61,356 bases of DNA from an uncultured Candidatus Saccharibacteria bacterium (lineage in GTDB: Bacteria > Patescibacteriota > Minisyncoccia > Phycocordibacterales > UBA6899). Shown here piece after piece: positions 3,937 to 46,460 of the stretch (the stretch's first letter is position 1; the number at the start of each line of letters is the position of its first letter). The notes beneath the pieces were generated by a model, which worked only from the letters and a program-made list of their open reading frames with translations, was not told the DNA's origin and made no database searches. Where the stretch lies: the NCBI GenBank assembly GCA_964386905.1, contig CAYLUP010000004.1:1-61356 (forward strand), given 5' to 3'. The translations under genes were made by a program, and so were the position numbers.

Positions 3937-4829
3937 AAATAAAGAGCAGTAATAATAAGTATATGTAAGACTATATAATTATGACATACTTCCTCGATTC
4001 CACAATCCACACATCCACTTGTTCCGTAGGAACATACGTACTTGCTCTTCTCTATCGGTTTCACGTGCAACGTAAAAAAGAACCAAAAGAAACAATATTT
4101 GTACATATTCGATGTGCCTATTCCCCTATTTGTTTAGCTGTGAGATAGAACATGTTTCATGTGCAACATGTCGTGTCCAAAATTGAGCATATGATTGTAC
4201 TGATTGATAATAGACCCAAAACACTCTCAGCAAGAAAGTTGCATCTTCTTCAAGAAATACGTACACAACAGACACAAGCAATAAATTTCCGATATACATG
4301 AGGAATATCCAAGAGCATCGAGCACGGAACTGTTTCACGTGAAAACACGTACCAAGTATGGACACCTCAGTTACTCACTAGGTACCTGCGGAAACAGAAA
4401 TATGGCCGCTCAATCAAATAATATATGTCCACGGGCGATATGTTTATATTTCAATCAAAGTATGTGTTACACATGAAATCATACGTAAACATCTAAAATA
4501 ACCAAAAATTCATTTCAATACAGTCAAAATGTCTATAATTTTACAAGTTCGGGCATCACAAAAAAAGAAACAAAACCATATGACTTGTAAAAATCGAATA
4601 AAAAGAAGCGAAAAACGATATGCTGCTATAATCAATTTCCGACAAGAGAAAGTTAGATCAAAACTAAAATCAATTTAGCGATGTCTTCAGCATACTGCTC
4701 ACAATACGTTGAAATACTGTTACACATGAAACTTATGATATATTATGACGGTTTTGATAAAATATGTTCCGTAGTTACATAAATAATACAAATTACGAAA
4801 TCAATCATCACCATGAGTTTCACGTGAAA

Positions 4830-5213
4830 TTATATACTGTCAATATATACATTCTCCCTAAGCTCAATTTCAGCAGTATATGATTGATTATTTAGAGCAA
4901 TGTTCATGAGTGATATGCACCGAGGAAGACGAATAGCCCTGTTTCGCATATAGTGAGTCATAACTGTGACCAAACGCTCAATCTTTTCACGTGTAACATG
5001 TATTCTCGGATGAAATTTGCTTGAAAGACCATATGTTAAAGATGTTTTAACCTCAATACAATGTATCAATCCGTTTTTCTCAGCGATAATATCAATTTCT
5101 CCAACACCATAAAGCTCATAATTTCGATCTACGATTCGATAGCCGACACTTCTCAAGTACCGCACAGCTACAGCTTCTCCAACATTACCGCTCTGTTTAG
5201 CTATACTTACCAT
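4830..5213 (-). CDS. yraN: YraN family (UPF0102) putative endonuclease
   Basis: GxxGExxAxxYL...NY...GEIDIIAEK...IHCIEVKT PD-(D/E)xK pattern. Start trimmed to the ATG at 5213. Confidence 0.9.
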   Translation of the reverse strand: MVSIAKQSGNVGEAVAVRYLRSVGYRIVDRNYELYGVGEIDIIAEKNGLIHCIEVKTSLTYGLSSKFHPRIHVTREKIERLVTVMTHYMRNRAIRLPRCISLMNIALNNQSYTAEIELRENVYIDSI

Positions 5214-5254
5214 ACATATAGTATATATGTGAAATACCCAATATTGCAAATACT

Positions 5255-5441
5255 TGTCCTTTATCCCCATTGTCCACAGGGTTATACACAGTGTCCTTGA
5301 GTGCCACAGCCTTAATACGAGAGTTTTTACACGCAAAAGACAATCCACAATAGTTATGTGGATAAGTCTGTGGACAATGGGGATATCAAGGACATGCTGA
5401 CAGTATGTCCTTTATCCCCACTATCCACAGGGTTATGCACA
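5255..5441. promoter_or_regulatory. DnaA-box cluster made of three ~36-bp modules
   Basis: Perfect TTATNCACA boxes at 5282-5290, 5357-5365 (reverse) and 5433-5441. Near-matches at 5261, 5270, 5341, 5369 (reverse), 5412 and 5421. Confidence 0.8.
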
Positions 5442-5569
5442 TATCGGACATATTAATGTTCAGAGACAAAAGTAGCATTTCTTTTCTATGTCCGAGACCG
5501 TCTTGCACTACATTCTAATGTTCTACATGAAACATACTTTTCCACGCAAGCACCTTTTTGAGGTGCTTG

Positions 5570-5821
5570 CTCTATCCGCAACAGAGAAAGGCCCGGAGGC
5601 CTCTTTCTTTGTGGGGGTAGGGAGATATCTCACACGCTCGCAAGGCTCGCTCCTCGGAAACCCATCCTGAATCATAGTCGTAAATAGTAATTTACTTCTT
5701 GTTCAGGACAGGCTCCGACTCGCTGCCTTCCTCCACAGGGAAACGGCTGTTTCCCCGACCCCCTTCCGTTCTATTCTCCCTACCCGCACAAAGAAAAAAA
5801 GCCTTTCGGCCCTTTTCTTTG
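5570..5821 (-). repeat. tRNA-Gly(GCC)-anchored ~210-bp unit (second core family)
   Basis: Inverted copy of the tRNA 3' end at 5769-5797. Degenerate direct copy TTTCTTTGTGGGGGTAGGGAGA at 5604-5625 versus 5814-5835. Confidence 0.85.
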
Positions 5822-5892
5822 TGCGGGTAGGGAGAATCGAACTCCCGTCTCGTCCTTGGCAAGGACGCATTCTACCACTAAACCATACCCGC
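5822..5892 (-). tRNA. tRNA-Gly (GCC)
   Basis: Reverse complement GCGGGTATGGTTTAGTGGTAGAATGCGTCCTTGCCAAGGACGAGACGGGAGTTCGATTCTCCCTACCCGCA folds as a cloverleaf; CCA not encoded. Confidence 0.95.
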
Positions 5893-5968
5893 GAATTTGT
5901 TGTAGAAGTATATTATCGTATTTCAATATATTTGGCAAGTTAGCGTTTATCGTATATATTGTAGGCAC

Positions 5969-6040
5969 GCTCCTGTGGTGAAGCGGATATCACAACGGTC
6001 TTCGAAACCGTTATCCCAGGTTCGAGTCCTGGCGGGAGCA
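5969..6040 (+). tRNA. tRNA-Arg (TCG)
   Basis: GCTCCTG...CGGGAGCA acceptor stem and anticodon arm ACGGT-CTTCGAA-ACCGT; CCA not encoded. Confidence 0.95.
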
Positions 6041-6275
6041 CAAAAATACAGAGAGAAATGTGCAGCATTTCTCGACATTATTTTTGCTATACGACAGGGC
6101 TCGAAGGCCGGACCCGGGCACCGTCGCGCATGCGCAGCATCGCGCACGGTCGGGGAGGCGGGGTCGCGAGCACAGTATCTCTTGTGCATTCATACAAGGG
6201 ATACTGTGACTTGTGACCGAGTCCTGGCGGGAGCACAAAAATACAAAGAGAAATGTACAACATTTCTCCACATTT
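6041..6275 (+). repeat. tRNA-Arg(TCG)-anchored ~195-bp unit
   Basis: 28-bp exact direct repeat at 6023-6050 and 6218-6245. Core 6101-6173 is homologous to the reverse complement of ~152-226. Confidence 0.92.
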
Positions 6276-6400
6276 CCTTACCTAAGTTCAAGGTAAAATT
6301 TAATTCTCGTAAGAGTTTCTCCTATATTTTCACGTGAAACACGTGATACTCCTTATTTTAACCATGCACAGATGTTTCATGTGCAACACCGTCCTTTTCT

Positions 6401-7885
6401 ATGTCATTACTATCTATACCAAAAGAAATTGCTTTTATTGCGGCAACCCTCGAACACGCAGGCTTTGAGGCATATCTTGTTGGAGGGTGCACGCGTGATC
6501 TCCTTGAAGGGAAAACTCCCAAGGACTGGGACATCACAACCAATGCACGCCCGGAACAAATTATTGCGATCTTTCCTCATACATTCTACGAAAATGATTT
6601 CGGTACTGTTGGTATCGTCAATGACGAGATCCCAGAAGATGATACCGACCGAGCAACTCTCCGTGTTGTTGAAATCACTCCATATCGCACAGAGTCGACC
6701 TACTCAGACCATCGACGCCCAGATGCCGTCAGATTTGCTGACAGTATCTATGAAGACCTTGAACGTCGAGACTTCACAATGAATGCAATCGCGTACAACA
6801 TCGCGAAAGACGAGCTCATCGATCCATACCTTGGTATTACAGACATTCGCAACAAGACTATTCGCGCAGTAGGGGATCCACATTTGCGTTTTACGGAGGA
6901 TGCACTTCGTGTCATGCGTGCAGTCCGCTTTGTTGCCCAACTGGGATTTCAAGTTGAAGAGAAGACGCTTCAGGCTGTCATCAGTCACGCCCCTCTGGTA
7001 CAAAAAATATCCATCGAACGTGTTCGTGACGAATTCTCAAAGCTCATTATGTCCGACAATCCAATGGAGGGAATCGTTTTTCTCCATCGTGTCAATCTCC
7101 TTTCCTATGTTTGCCCAGAACTTATTGAAGGACTTGGCTGTGTGCAAAATAACTCTCACATCTATGATGTCTGGGAGCATAGTCTTCGCGCACTCCAACA
7201 TGCTGCTGACAAAAAATTTCCAATTCATGTTCGCCTTGGAGCACTCTTTCATGATATTGGGAAACCAAAATCTCGCCGATATGCTCCAGAGAGAAAGGAC
7301 TGGACGTTCTATGGGCACGAAGTCATTGGTGCGCGCATGGTAGAAAAAATTCTTGATCGACTCCGGTTCTCCCGAGACATTGTCACAAAGGTGACACTTC
7401 TCGTCCGCTATCATATGTTCTTCTCTGACATCGAGCAAATCACCCTTTCTGCAGTCCGTCGTATCGTTGCAAACGTTGGCGCAGATCTTGTATGGGACCT
7501 TATGTCTGTTCGATCCTGTGATCGCATTGGCATGGGACGCCCACTGGAAACTCCATATCGCCTTCGAAAATATCACTCGATGATTGAAGAAGCGATGCGT
7601 GCACCAGTATCTGTCAAAATGTTAAAGGTCGATGGGGGAGTTATTATGACCGAACTTGGCGAAGCACCTGGACCAAGAGTTGGCGCACTCCTCCATGCAC
7701 TCTTTGATGCAGTGCTCGAAAATCCTGAACTCAACACACGAGAGCAGCTTCTAGACCTCGCTCGCACATACCAATCTCTTTCCCATGACGAGCTTCTTGC
7801 AAAAGGAGAAGCAGGGAAGATGAGCAAAGACGAAGAAGAGAAGAAAGAAATCAAGGAGCTTCGTAAAAAATACCACGTGAAATAA
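6401..7885 (+). CDS. cca: CCA tRNA nucleotidyltransferase with HD domain
   Basis: YLVGGCTRD, DWDITT, DLERRDFTMNAIA, FTEDALRVMRAVRF, and the HD motif H..H...LFHDIGK. Confidence 0.93.
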   Translation: MSLLSIPKEIAFIAATLEHAGFEAYLVGGCTRDLLEGKTPKDWDITTNARPEQIIAIFPHTFYENDFGTVGIVNDEIPEDDTDRATLRVVEITPYRTESTYSDHRRPDAVRFADSIYEDLERRDFTMNAIAYNIAKDELIDPYLGITDIRNKTIRAVGDPHLRFTEDALRVMRAVRFVAQLGFQVEEKTLQAVISHAPLVQKISIERVRDEFSKLIMSDNPMEGIVFLHRVNLLSYVCPELIEGLGCVQNNSHIYDVWEHSLRALQHAADKKFPIHVRLGALFHDIGKPKSRRYAPERKDWTFYGHEVIGARMVEKILDRLRFSRDIVTKVTLLVRYHMFFSDIEQITLSAVRRIVANVGADLVWDLMSVRSCDRIGMGRPLETPYRLRKYHSMIEEAMRAPVSVKMLKVDGGVIMTELGEAPGPRVGALLHALFDAVLENPELNTREQLLDLARTYQSLSHDELLAKGEAGKMSKDEEEKKEIKELRKKYHVK

Positions 7886-43548: not shown

Positions 43549-43668
43549 ATAGTATCAGAAATAGGGGATTAGGGAAATAGTCTTTCTCTTTATCTTATAT
43601 AGGTGTTTTTCATGAAAAACAAAGAAACTCTTGCTTTTTTTGCAAAAATGTTATAAAGTACACACACT

Positions 43669-43806
43669 ATGTCTCAAACGTATCAGCCAAAGAAGCTCAA
43701 GCGCGTACGTACCCACGGTTTCCTTGCACGCAAGGCAACTGCAACTGGTCGTAAAATCCTCGCTGCACGACGTGCACAAGGACGAAAGCGTTTGGTTACT
43801 GTATAA
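43669..43806 (+). CDS. rpmH: 50S ribosomal protein L34
   Basis: Manual translation [45 protein letters not shown]; too short for the supplied ORF track. Confidence 0.97.
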
Positions 43807-43874
43807 CACAGGAGAAAACCCCAATATTATTGGGGTTTTCTTTATTTTTCCTTATTTCTCTCTATAATACATAT

Positions 43875-44222
43875 ATGCTTCCACAATCCTACCGTATCCC
43901 AAGACGATCATTCCCTCATCCACAGACAAAAATGCGTACTTGGTTAGGAACCGTATTGAAAATTCGCTCATATAAAGGAGAGGAATCTACATTTCACACA
44001 GCTATTATCACCTCAAAAAAAACATACACCACAAAACCTGAACGCAACCTCTTTAAACGTCGTGTGTGTGCAGCTCTACAAAAGCACCTTCACAAAAGCA
44101 CTCATGTTCCTTGTGATTATGTATTAGTATTTCCACTTATCCACACAAAAGATATTTCGTTTTCTCAGATTGAAAAAGATATAGCGAACTATTTTTCATC
44201 CTCCTTTACAAAAAAAGTATGA
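43875..44222 (+). CDS. rnpA: Ribonuclease P protein component
   Basis: MLPQSYRI...IITSKK...ERNLFKRRV (RNR-like motif); directly after rpmH. Confidence 0.85.
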   Translation: MLPQSYRIPRRSFPHPQTKMRTWLGTVLKIRSYKGEESTFHTAIITSKKTYTTKPERNLFKRRVCAALQKHLHKSTHVPCDYVLVFPLIHTKDISFSQIEKDIANYFSSSFTKKV

Positions 44223-44431
44223 AACGAATGATTCGTATTTATCAATACCTTCTTTCTCCAGATAAGGGGGTATTCTCACTTGGAAGAAGAACGTGTGCAA
44301 TGCACCCAACATGCTCTGAATACATGGAACAGTCTATTGAAAAATATGGCTTATTAAAAGGATTTTTAAGAGGGATCCGAAGAATAGGGAGGTGTCATCC
44401 ATGGCAAAAAAACCTTATCGATCTCCCATAG
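44219..44431 (+). CDS. yidD: Membrane protein insertion efficiency factor YidD
   Basis: IRIYQYLLSP...CAMHPTCSEY...G..RIGRCHPW. Confidence 0.93.
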   Translation: MKRMIRIYQYLLSPDKGVFSLGRRTCAMHPTCSEYMEQSIEKYGLLKGFLRGIRRIGRCHPWQKNLIDLP

Positions 44432-44666
44432 AAAATATATATATAAAAAAATGCACAATTCTTATCGTGGTATTCCATAAAAAATGAGTTGTGTTTTTTT
44501 GTATCACCGAAACACATTCGTCAACATTGTATTCTGCAAGCCTTTCACGTATGCTTCAAGTCAACACATTATCCACAGAGTTATGAACAGTTTTCATTGT
44601 GGCGTAAATCACTTTCTCTCGGCTATAATGTGCTCACGTTAGACGGGTTTAACAATTTTTTAGCTT
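44432..44666. promoter_or_regulatory. dnaA upstream region with DnaA boxes (oriC candidate part 1)
   Basis: Perfect TTATCCACA at 44569-44577 and TTATGAACA at 44581-44589. Confidence 0.55.
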
Positions 44667-46052
44667 ATGAATATGGAGACAAAGGAATTGTGGACACGCG
44701 CTCTTATTGATATTGAACTTGAAGTTTCTCCAGCAAACTTTACAACATGGTTCAAAAACACAAAGATCACGCGTATTGAGCAGGGTACTGCTTTTGTGGG
44801 CACAACAAATGAATTTGCACGGGATTGGCTCGCAAATAAATACAATTCAACAATTCTTCGCATCCTCCGAAATATCTCTCCAGATATTCGTTCAGTAGAA
44901 TTTGTTATCGCAAAAAATATCACACCAAACCAACCAGGAAGGGATATTCAATTTGATAAAACGGATTTTTCTCCAAAATCACGACAGTCTTCATATAATA
45001 TGGGATCCGAACTCCCTCTTAATGAAGCGTATGTAAGTAGGGAGGATGGTTTAAACCCTCGATATACATTTGATAATTTCATTACTGGTCCATTTAACGA
45101 ACTCGCTTTTGCAGCAGCACAAGCAGTGCTTCGGAAACCGGGTATTATGTACAATCCGTTTTATGTCTACGGACAAACCGGTATTGGAAAAACCCACCTC
45201 ACTCAAGCAATAGGGAATGGGATCAAGAAGAGTTTTCCAGGGAAACGCATTCAGTATATTAGCTCTGAGCGTTTTGCAAATGATTATGTTTCTGCTGTTC
45301 AATCAGGAAAAACAGCAGAGTTTAAAGAGCGGTATCGTAAACATGATGTGCTTATCATGGACGATATTCAATTCTTTGCAGGAAAAGAAAAAACACAAGA
45401 AGAGCTTTTTCATTTATACGAAGCACTTCATGGGAATAATAAACAAATTATTTTCTCCTCAGATAGACATCCAAATTATATTAACGGCCTAGAAGATCGT
45501 TTAAAATCTCGTTTTGGTGCTGGAATGATTGTTGAAATAGCACTCCCAGATTTTGAGACACGACTTGCTATTCTTCGTGAAAAAACACGTCAACAAGGGG
45601 TTATTTTAAGTGATGATATCCTTACATATGTTGCGGAAACAATCCAAACATCAGTCCGCGAGCTTGAGGGGACATTAAACCTTGTTATATGCCAAGCACA
45701 ACTCAAACAGCGTGAATTAAGCCTCCTAGACATCAAATCACTCATTAAAAACAATACAAAACCAACAAAACCAGTATCAATTAAAGATATTGTGCGTGTT
45801 ATTTCTGGTTTTTATAACATTGATGAGAGGTATATTTATGAAAAAACACGAAGAAAAGAAGTTGTTCGACCAAGACAGATTCTTATGTTTATCCTTCGTG
45901 AAGATTTTAATATTTCATACCCACTTATTGGTCAAAAATTAGGGGGGAGGGATCATACTACAGTGATCCATAGTTGTGAGAAAGTAAAAACAGATATCAA
46001 AAGTGATAGTATTTTAATGCAAGAAATTGAACAAATTCGCGCATTATTCTAA
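44667..46052 (+). CDS. dnaA: Chromosomal replication initiator DnaA
   Basis: LNPRYTFDNF, YNPFYVYGQTGIGKTHL, DDIQF, RLKSRF and GGRDHTTVIHS. Confidence 0.98.
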   Translation: MNMETKELWTRALIDIELEVSPANFTTWFKNTKITRIEQGTAFVGTTNEFARDWLANKYNSTILRILRNISPDIRSVEFVIAKNITPNQPGRDIQFDKTDFSPKSRQSSYNMGSELPLNEAYVSREDGLNPRYTFDNFITGPFNELAFAAAQAVLRKPGIMYNPFYVYGQTGIGKTHLTQAIGNGIKKSFPGKRIQYISSERFANDYVSAVQSGKTAEFKERYRKHDVLIMDDIQFFAGKEKTQEELFHLYEALHGNNKQIIFSSDRHPNYINGLEDRLKSRFGAGMIVEIALPDFETRLAILREKTRQQGVILSDDILTYVAETIQTSVRELEGTLNLVICQAQLKQRELSLLDIKSLIKNNTKPTKPVSIKDIVRVISGFYNIDERYIYEKTRRKEVVRPRQILMFILREDFNISYPLIGQKLGGRDHTTVIHSCEKVKTDIKSDSILMQEIEQIRALF

Positions 46053-46460
46053 AAACATAGGTAAAACCTATGTTTTTTGTTTCGATACATCTTATTGTGC
46101 ATCCTTTTTATATAGAATACAGTGTATGTTGTTCGGAGTATTATATGAAGAATAGGTGAATAGTATTTTTATTTCTTAAATCTTGAATCATAAATCATTC
46201 TTCTCTTCATACTATCAATGTGGATTATGTGTGGAAACCTCGGGTAAAACTGTGGGTTTCCACGTGGGTAAAAGTAAGGTATTCTTGAAAGGTAGGTGGG
46301 GATGAAAATGGTGATACATGTTACATCTGGGGATATCTTCAATTGGTTCGTTTTTTACCCACAGAGAGTATTCCTGTGAAACATAAACTTTGCTTGATAA
46401 AATCATCATCATCCACATACCCACAGGTCTCTTAATAATAATGTATTTATATATAAAGAT
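46053..46460. promoter_or_regulatory. dnaA-dnaN intergenic AT-rich region (oriC candidate part 2)
   Basis: ~400 bp AT-rich spacer with degenerate boxes (TGTGGATTA 46219-46227, TTACCCACA 46355-46363, others near 46410-46427). Confidence 0.5.

Follow-up and report, generated by a model that had tools for sequence, protein, structure and literature searches.

Clusters of DnaA boxes that do not serve as replication origins are known from a handful of model bacteria, in which their function is a matter of continuing debate. Escherichia coli has small clusters of this kind, datA, DARS1 and DARS2, which modulate the initiator pool; they work via IHF- or Fis-dependent hydrolysis of DnaA-ATP or release of ADP and have a defined box geometry, and datA, with an essential IHF site between its boxes, is replicated early. 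The DnaA sites at the centromere of Caulobacter are few and weak and lie approximately 8 kb from Cori; DnaA at that centromere is reported to act on partition and to be required, independently of replication, for the centromere to move. In Bacillus subtilis, initiation is kept in check by DnaA-box clusters proximal to oriC, whose loss leads to early initiation that an ectopic copy corrects, and a genetic interaction links these clusters to Spo0J/Soj (Okumura et al., 2012; PMC3245932). At oriCII of Pseudomonas aeruginosa, which is not reported to fire replication, DnaA controls the transcription of gidAB-parAB (PMC13438810).

Here, a cluster of DnaA boxes is described from an uncultured wastewater bacterium. 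The window, meaning the whole stretch of 61,356 nucleotides that was analysed, is the entire contig C4 of a genome of 35 contigs and 860 kb. As in B. subtilis, the cluster comprises several near-consensus boxes that are intergenic and located outside but near oriC; as in Caulobacter, the boxes are situated within the parS region, both in the window and in its relatives. No account of this element in CPR bacteria turned up when the literature was searched. The reading favoured here, with a probability of roughly 0.6, is that of a non-origin DnaA-box cluster that would serve at the centromere both as an operator and as a sink for DnaA, replication being initiated from the spacer between dnaA and dnaN.

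The repeated module and its setting

The cluster is built from a 36-nt module that consists of TGTCCTTTAT followed by three head-to-tail DnaA boxes, the first two abutting and the third placed after 3 bp; three copies are located between the yraN start and a tRNA-Gly gene (Table 1). A preliminary description of this DNA had claimed a direct repeat with an inverted variant between its copies. Both were recovered, the former as modules A and C (5255-5290 and 5406-5441; 36 nt, 92% identity) and the latter as module B (5357-5385/5394; arms of 29-31 nt with 84-90% complementarity), which departs from the strict template by one additional base in its prefix. With a DnaA box defined as a 9-mer with at most one mismatch to TTATCCACA, eight boxes fall within 181 bp (5261, 5270, 5282, 5357(-), 5369(-), 5412, 5421 and 5433) and two further boxes have two mismatches (5341-5349 and 5378-5386(-)), making the earlier figure of about nine boxes a fair one. 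The additional claim that three of them are perfect holds for the looser TTATNCACA (5282, 5357 and 5433) and not for the strict TTATCCACA, which is matched without mismatch by 5357(-) only.

Table 1. Coordinates of the features discussed in the text, numbered from the first letter of the window.
Feature	Position	Strand	Remarks
AT-rich, almost gene-free gap	3937..4829	.	contains six parS sites
parS array	4057..6388	.	ten sites, 2-4 mismatches to TGTTTCACGTGAAACA; brackets the DnaA-box cluster
yraN (UPF0102 nuclease-like)	4830..5213	-	Pfam PF02021, E=3.3e-17; conserved left neighbour of the module
yraN promoter candidate	5220..5249	-	consensus-type, TTGCAA-18-TATACT; pattern match only; ends 6 bp from module A
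Module A	5255..5290	+	TGTCCTTTAT, box TTATCCCCA, abutting box TTGTCCACA, spacer GGG, box TTATACACA
Extra TGTCCTT word	5292..5298	+	immediately 3' of module A
Weak extra box	5341..5349	+	CAATCCACA; 2 mismatches
Module B, inverted	5357..5394	-	TGTGGATAA-GTC-TGTGGACAA-TGGGGATAT-C-AAGGACA
Central palindrome	5388..5412	.	AAGGACA-N11-TGTCCTT; joins modules B and C
Module C	5406..5441	+	TGTCCTTTAT, TTATCCCCA, CTATCCACA, GGG, TTATGCACA
cca (CCA-adding enzyme)	6401..7885	+	Pfam PF01743; conserved right neighbour of the module
dnaA	44667..46052	+	cumulative G-C minimum at 45,200, inside dnaA
Probable oriC (dnaA-dnaN spacer)	46053..46460	+	leftward boxes at 46219-46300
Unwinding core	46409-46460		TCATCCACA-TACCCACAG-GT-CTC TTA ATA ATA ATG, then AT-rich tract to the dnaN ATG

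The window as a whole contains 35 boxes, compared to 17.8 +/- 4.3 in shuffled sequence, and this total was attained in none of 100 shuffles. A template of the full module, applied with up to 6 mismatches, gave no match in 20 shuffles. Across the genome, boxes occur at a density of 0.36 per kb, and the cluster represents the maximum over all 35 contigs, with 8 boxes per 200 bp compared to 4 for the runner-up; it accounts for 8 of the genome's 308 near-consensus boxes. Alignment of DnaA domain IV to 1J1V and 8BTG showed that R399, P423 and the DHTTVxH motif are conserved, such that all base-contact residues are retained (R399, P423, D433, H434, T435 and H439 in E. coli numbering). Thus, both features that mark membership among DnaA boxes, an excess over chance and the kept contact residues of domain IV, are present, and the array of candidate DnaA sites is real and conserved.

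The sequence of the window is contained in wastewater metagenomes from five studies. Moreover, the three-module layout is reproduced in independently assembled contigs from three wastewater studies with either zero differences or one outside the modules, and an artefact of repeat assembly is ruled out by these independent contigs, which span the modules. One contig of another wastewater study carries a G>A difference at position 5446, 5 bp past module C, its modules being identical.

Ten parS-like sites at 4057-6388 surround the cluster, seven to the left of the boxes and three to the right, in agreement with its claimed placement inside a parS array. A second parS cluster was looked for across the genome and none was found; parB is carried on a contig other than that of the window. 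The AT-rich stretch that had been noted nearby is likewise present (34.9% GC at 4001-5000), and the yraN gene stands between the AT-rich gap and the boxes. On the other side, cca is displaced by ~960 bp from the cluster by two tRNA genes and tRNA-end cassettes. The stretch at 5570-5841 is structured, with a 22-bp long-range stem, carries a direct and an inverted copy of the tRNA-Gly 3' end and terminator, and matches nothing in Rfam. A search of 5442-5820 for known RNAs with Rfam at a permissive threshold returned only the two tRNAs and chance matches to microRNA-type hairpins.

The TGTCCTTTAT prefix is invariant across modules, and this invariance shows that something besides DnaA is also read at the site. 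Modules B and C diverge from the central palindrome formed by this word, and TGTCCTTTA palindromes also occur away from the cluster, at C2:190530-190565 and C11:10456-10481, in the forms TTAAAGGACATGCACGAATTCGTGCATGTCCTTTAA and TAAAGGACA-N8-TGTCCTTTA, the latter adjoining two DnaA boxes. Because the same word makes palindromes elsewhere without DnaA boxes, the prefix, or TGTCC word, is probably bound by a further protein that acts as a dimer, and its occurrences suggest a separate DNA-binding dimer that may have a small regulon of its own. Smaller groups of DnaA boxes are found at C1:54111-54170, C2:61279-61400 and C1:60393-60480, their settings being the start of a dnaB-type helicase gene, a position just past gyrB, and a third intergenic region. 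These groups suggest that DnaA may act as a regulator in this genome and hint at a possible DnaA regulon of replication genes.

Distribution and position of the module among relatives

An exact search pattern, TGTCCTTTAT-N3-CA-N-T-N3-CACA-N3-TT-N-T-N-C-N-CA, was found in at least 119 genome contigs, all of them from Patescibacteria of Parcubacteria type; names on related contigs include Candidatus Lloydbacteria, Nomurabacteria, Yonathbacteria and Kaiserbacteria. In the consensus of 127 module copies, the 27 nt that remain after the prefix are three canonical TTATCCACA boxes. When genomes were sampled evenly across the class, the exact pattern was present in 3 of 401, all belonging to one order, and a claim of class-wide conservation was dropped on this ground and limited to the order. 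Within that order, 36 of 121 sampled families (~30%) have a match at up to 3 mismatches, as compared to 1 control match. Conservation in relatives, on which the preliminary description had made its proposal depend, is thus borne out, the module being kept across the order at a fixed locus. Between species of the genus, modules alone align (BLAST matches of 29-45 nt at 87-97%) and the spacers do not.

A total of 111 of the 119 loci carry a single module. Two to five modules are present in the window's family, and in the window's genus the module has been amplified to 3-5 copies. When the loci are read with the module on the plus strand, the gene to its left is yraN, on the minus strand, in 83 of the 119, and the gene to its right is cca, on the plus strand, in 68; the usual place of the module is the divergent yraN-cca spacer, as a rule 60-200 bp away from where yraN starts. 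In nearly all 119 loci, parS lies within 2.5 kb of the module, usually as 3-8 sites. In 21 of 22 genomes, a distance of 20-60 kb separates the module from dnaA, and the module is found on the rpmH side; this arrangement was confirmed on DNA in seven genomes, and in the others a shared contig was deduced from coordinates. The exception is G060, in which the coordinates of dnaA do not fit the contig of the module. In the window, the distance of 39 kb from dnaA given earlier is correct and corresponds to ~4.5% of 860 kb.

Position of the origin and orientation of genes

The preliminary description had noted a switch in strand composition near dnaA, and the GC, GC3 and four-fold-site skews all turn there, with GC skew in the window negative from 1 to ~45 kb and positive past ~45 kb. 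When calculated for plus-strand genes, four-fold GC skew is -0.213 to the left of dnaA (n=21) and +0.110 to the right (n=12; p=3.5e-4). Since the skew still switches at dnaA with plus-strand genes alone, the switch is not an effect of gene orientation. In G001, a genome of the same genus with dnaA at 89-91 kb and modules at 138.6-139.1 kb, the turn in GC and GC3 skew comes at 90 kb, and both remain positive through the modules. Similarly, in G012, from a sister genus, the skew turns at ~62 kb, the position of dnaA, and the module is located at 11.6 kb. For two distant genomes, G041 and G054, the skew also turns at dnaA and is too weak to decide the matter, and a third, G053, has no clear skew switch anywhere.

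A common layout, comprising two abutting boxes, a short G/C spacer, 3-5 NTA triplets and an AT tract, precedes dnaN in all seven genomes examined, and this dnaA-dnaN core conforms to the rules that have been published for basal unwinding at oriC (PMC8287927). The dnaA-dnaN spacer of the window holds 3 boxes at no more than one mismatch and ~5 more at 2 mismatches. The claim that a single perfect intergenic box is found near dnaA is correct for the box at 44569 (another, at 44137, is inside rnpA) and incomplete as to the spacer, with its further near-consensus boxes. An unwinding core was also looked for next to the modules and none was found, the sequence 3' of the modules not being conserved even within the genus; the flanks of the 127 modules are low in information. 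Of the features of an origin, gene divergence is found at the cluster, and a skew switch and a conserved core are not.

The turn of the skew at dnaA, together with the finding that nothing core-like is conserved by the modules, indicates that the cluster is not an active origin, and replication probably starts in the dnaA-dnaN spacer. The real or second origin considered in the preliminary description was therefore rejected on the basis of skew in the window and relatives, of the cluster having no conserved unwinding core, and of the presence of such a core in the dnaA-dnaN spacer. For annotation of these genomes it follows that the densest DnaA-box cluster is not to be equated with the origin, which is to be placed in the dnaA-dnaN spacer, where the box pair and the trios are found.

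Throughout the genome, genes follow the G-rich strand, with plus-strand coding of ~80% on contigs of positive skew and of 0-40% on those of negative skew. Between 5.9 and 42.3 kb of the window, 76% of coding bases are nevertheless on the plus strand despite negative skew; the GC, GC3 and four-fold skews at 5900-42300 mark the plus strand as lagging, and this 36-kb block is therefore mostly head-on to forks arriving from dnaA. The block includes type IV secretion genes, and the position of such genes near dnaA in these bacteria has already been described (PMC12102498). The same head-on arrangement is seen in G001 (90-135 kb), with the flip in orientation at the modules, and G041 and G054 show a less sharp flip near the module. 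It is thus from the centromere with its box module, and not from oriC, that genes diverge, and this divergence is the one origin-like trait of the site.

Several observations concern gene order nearby and elsewhere in the genome. At 43549-44666 of the window, rpmH, rnpA and a small yidD-like frame share the strand of dnaA; to the left of the origin only yidC and a jag-like R3H gene diverge, leaving a minus-strand island of just 1.2 kb. On C1:160000-210000, GC skew passes from positive to negative at ~165-180 kb, beside a 20-kb run of minus-strand genes. The sole parB gene is located at ~190 kb of C1, in the negative-skew part, and a terminus and a rearrangement are both possible there.

Possible roles and comparison with described systems

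That the cluster is a non-origin accessory DnaA site is well supported; occupancy by DnaA, an effect on a promoter and an effect as a sink are what we infer. The earlier alternative of a titration locus or an origin, with a leaning to titration because of the strand switch near dnaA, is retained in part: box density, order-wide conservation and the domain IV residues argue for a non-origin, putatively DnaA-binding cluster, and the origin falls away. Tightly packed consensus boxes would be expected to nucleate short DnaA oligomers on double-stranded DNA. With neither DnaA-trios nor an unwinding element after the boxes, no opening would be predicted at the cluster; oligomers formed on a module presumably could not go on to opening because the third box occupies the place of the spacer and trios. 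DnaA on the module would act on the adjacent yraN promoter, ancestrally on the yraN/cca pair, and the TGTCC-word protein probably acts jointly with bound DnaA. Ancestrally, the single module would have served as an operator in the control region from which yraN and cca diverge, and that protein would have used the operator as well. In the amplified state, ~ten good sites may keep the initiator from the weaker boxes of oriC, and the sink would be duplicated soon after initiation; an amplified store replicated that early would make a plausible sink.

These roles differ in how far the locus points to them. A sink role is suggested by a sole hint, the amplification of the module in the window's family. 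One module per genome, as in most relatives, is too few for a meaningful sink, and titration may be neither the ancestral nor the main role. The single copy at a fixed yraN-cca place, together with the second word, points at least equally to an operator or a centromere-linked role. Partition is just as possible a role, given that the site, as judged from the positions of parS-like sites, is always inside parS. Weighing against the favoured reading are the small share that the cluster has in the genome's near-consensus boxes, the divergence of genes from it, as would be expected of an origin, and the invariant prefix, which points to a reader besides DnaA.

Four other explanations were weighed against a combined operator and sink. 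The site could be a purely transcriptional operator at which DnaA and the TGTCC-word protein control yraN, and ancestrally cca, the extra copies in this genus being neutral duplications that leave initiation unaffected. Such an operator would fit the constancy of position and orientation that the module shows between yraN and cca in most loci, the one copy in 111 of 119 loci, the promoter-like site that adjoins module A, the palindromes of its own that the companion word makes at other promoters, and the DnaA boxes at dnaB and gyrB. However, three packed consensus boxes kept order-wide exceed the needs of a simple operator, multi-copy arrays are retained in several species of the family with modules conserved and spacers not, and cca is ~960 bp off in the window; promoter control also does not account for the constant embedding in parS, and an operator alone is considered doubtful. 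The site could also serve in coupling to the centromere, with DnaA in the parS array acting on partition, for example by shaping or blocking the loading and sliding of ParB, or by timing segregation to initiation. The module is within the genome's sole parS array (7 sites to the left, 3 to the right), parS is no more than 2.5 kb away in nearly all 119 loci, and the B. subtilis DnaA-box clusters are genetically linked to Spo0J/Soj (PMC3245932). The co-location may, however, reflect the retention of both elements in one old intergenic region near oriC, and parB is on a different contig; coupling as the principal function is thus judged quite unlikely.

The gene divergence described above keeps alive, at low odds, the idea of a former or conditional origin. 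A real, second or retired origin here, in the form of an oriC like that of E. coli, apart from dnaA and joined to the centromere, and active either today or in the ancestor of the order, would account for boxes more numerous and better than those at oriC, for the AT-rich gap close by, for the position among parS sites and for genes that diverge from the site, with 76% plus-strand coding at 5.9-42.3 kb and a flip at the module in G001. A loose run of four NTN triplets, identified by eye under the rules of PMC8287927, is also present 8 bp after module C. Nevertheless, such an origin is very improbable: GC, GC3 and four-fold skew are unswitched at the module in the window, G001 and G012 and switch at dnaA, the weaker skews of G041 and G054 likewise turn at dnaA, the sequence after the modules is unconserved even within the genus, conservation across the order is instead seen for the unwinding core between dnaA and dnaN, and yraN intervenes between the AT-rich gap and the boxes. 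Scarcely credible is the proposal that DnaA does not read the sites and that they are iterons of another protein with a chance resemblance to DnaA boxes. In its favour, the TGTCCTTTAT prefix, which is invariant, is no DnaA box and alone forms palindromes elsewhere, but the 27-nt remainder of 127 copies has a consensus of three canonical TTATCCACA boxes, the same boxes make up the dnaA-dnaN core, and DnaA retains every base-contact residue. As a conjecture that we consider improbable, the parS array, TGTCC word and box trio might represent the fused centromere and former or conditional origin of a CPR order, from which genes would still diverge because replication began there in the past and, in some lineages or conditions, might do so even now; firing would later have moved to the dnaA-dnaN core, and the retained loading of DnaA would now couple initiator level to ParB-driven segregation.

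With the operator and sink retained as the preferred reading, the locus represents a non-origin DnaA-box cluster that has stayed in place for as long as a large order of uncultured, ultra-small bacteria has existed. Its notable aspects are the fixed union with a centromere, the pairing with a second conserved word and the amplification in one family. If DnaA binds, the locus would be a natural system in which control of initiation, partition and a promoter share ~200 bp, and its single-copy and multi-copy relatives would provide a built-in comparison of operator and sink.

Among described systems, the B. subtilis clusters share with this locus dense consensus boxes in intergenic promoter regions near but outside oriC, and both are without an unwinding element and linked to Spo0J/Soj-parS. 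The likeness extends to the proposed roles, in which the cluster regulates genes beside it and restrains initiation. Unlike the B. subtilis clusters, the one described here consists of repeats of a fixed 36-nt module whose prefix word is not a DnaA box, is physically inside the parS array and occupies the same locus across an order. P. aeruginosa oriCII is similarly a second box cluster apart from that of dnaA, on the rpmH side and beside partition functions, but oriCII adjoins the parAB genes, whereas here the boxes are among parS sites, parB is on another contig and the neighbouring genes are yraN and cca. E. coli datA, DARS1 and DARS2 are, like this cluster, small and non-origin, and have no sequence relation to it; DARS has a three-box core of defined opposed orientation that releases ADP from DnaA, and each module here has three boxes pointing one way, modules B and C being opposed to each other. 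DnaA sites in the parS region at a short distance from the origin are shared with Caulobacter, whereas the sites here are tandem consensus triplets 20-60 kb away. Finally, the first two boxes of the module abut in the same manner as the core pair of the dnaA-dnaN spacer in the basal unwinding system (PMC8287927), but the place that the G/C spacer, DnaA-trios and AT tract have in a real core is taken in the module by a third box, such that the module looks like a core without its opening part.
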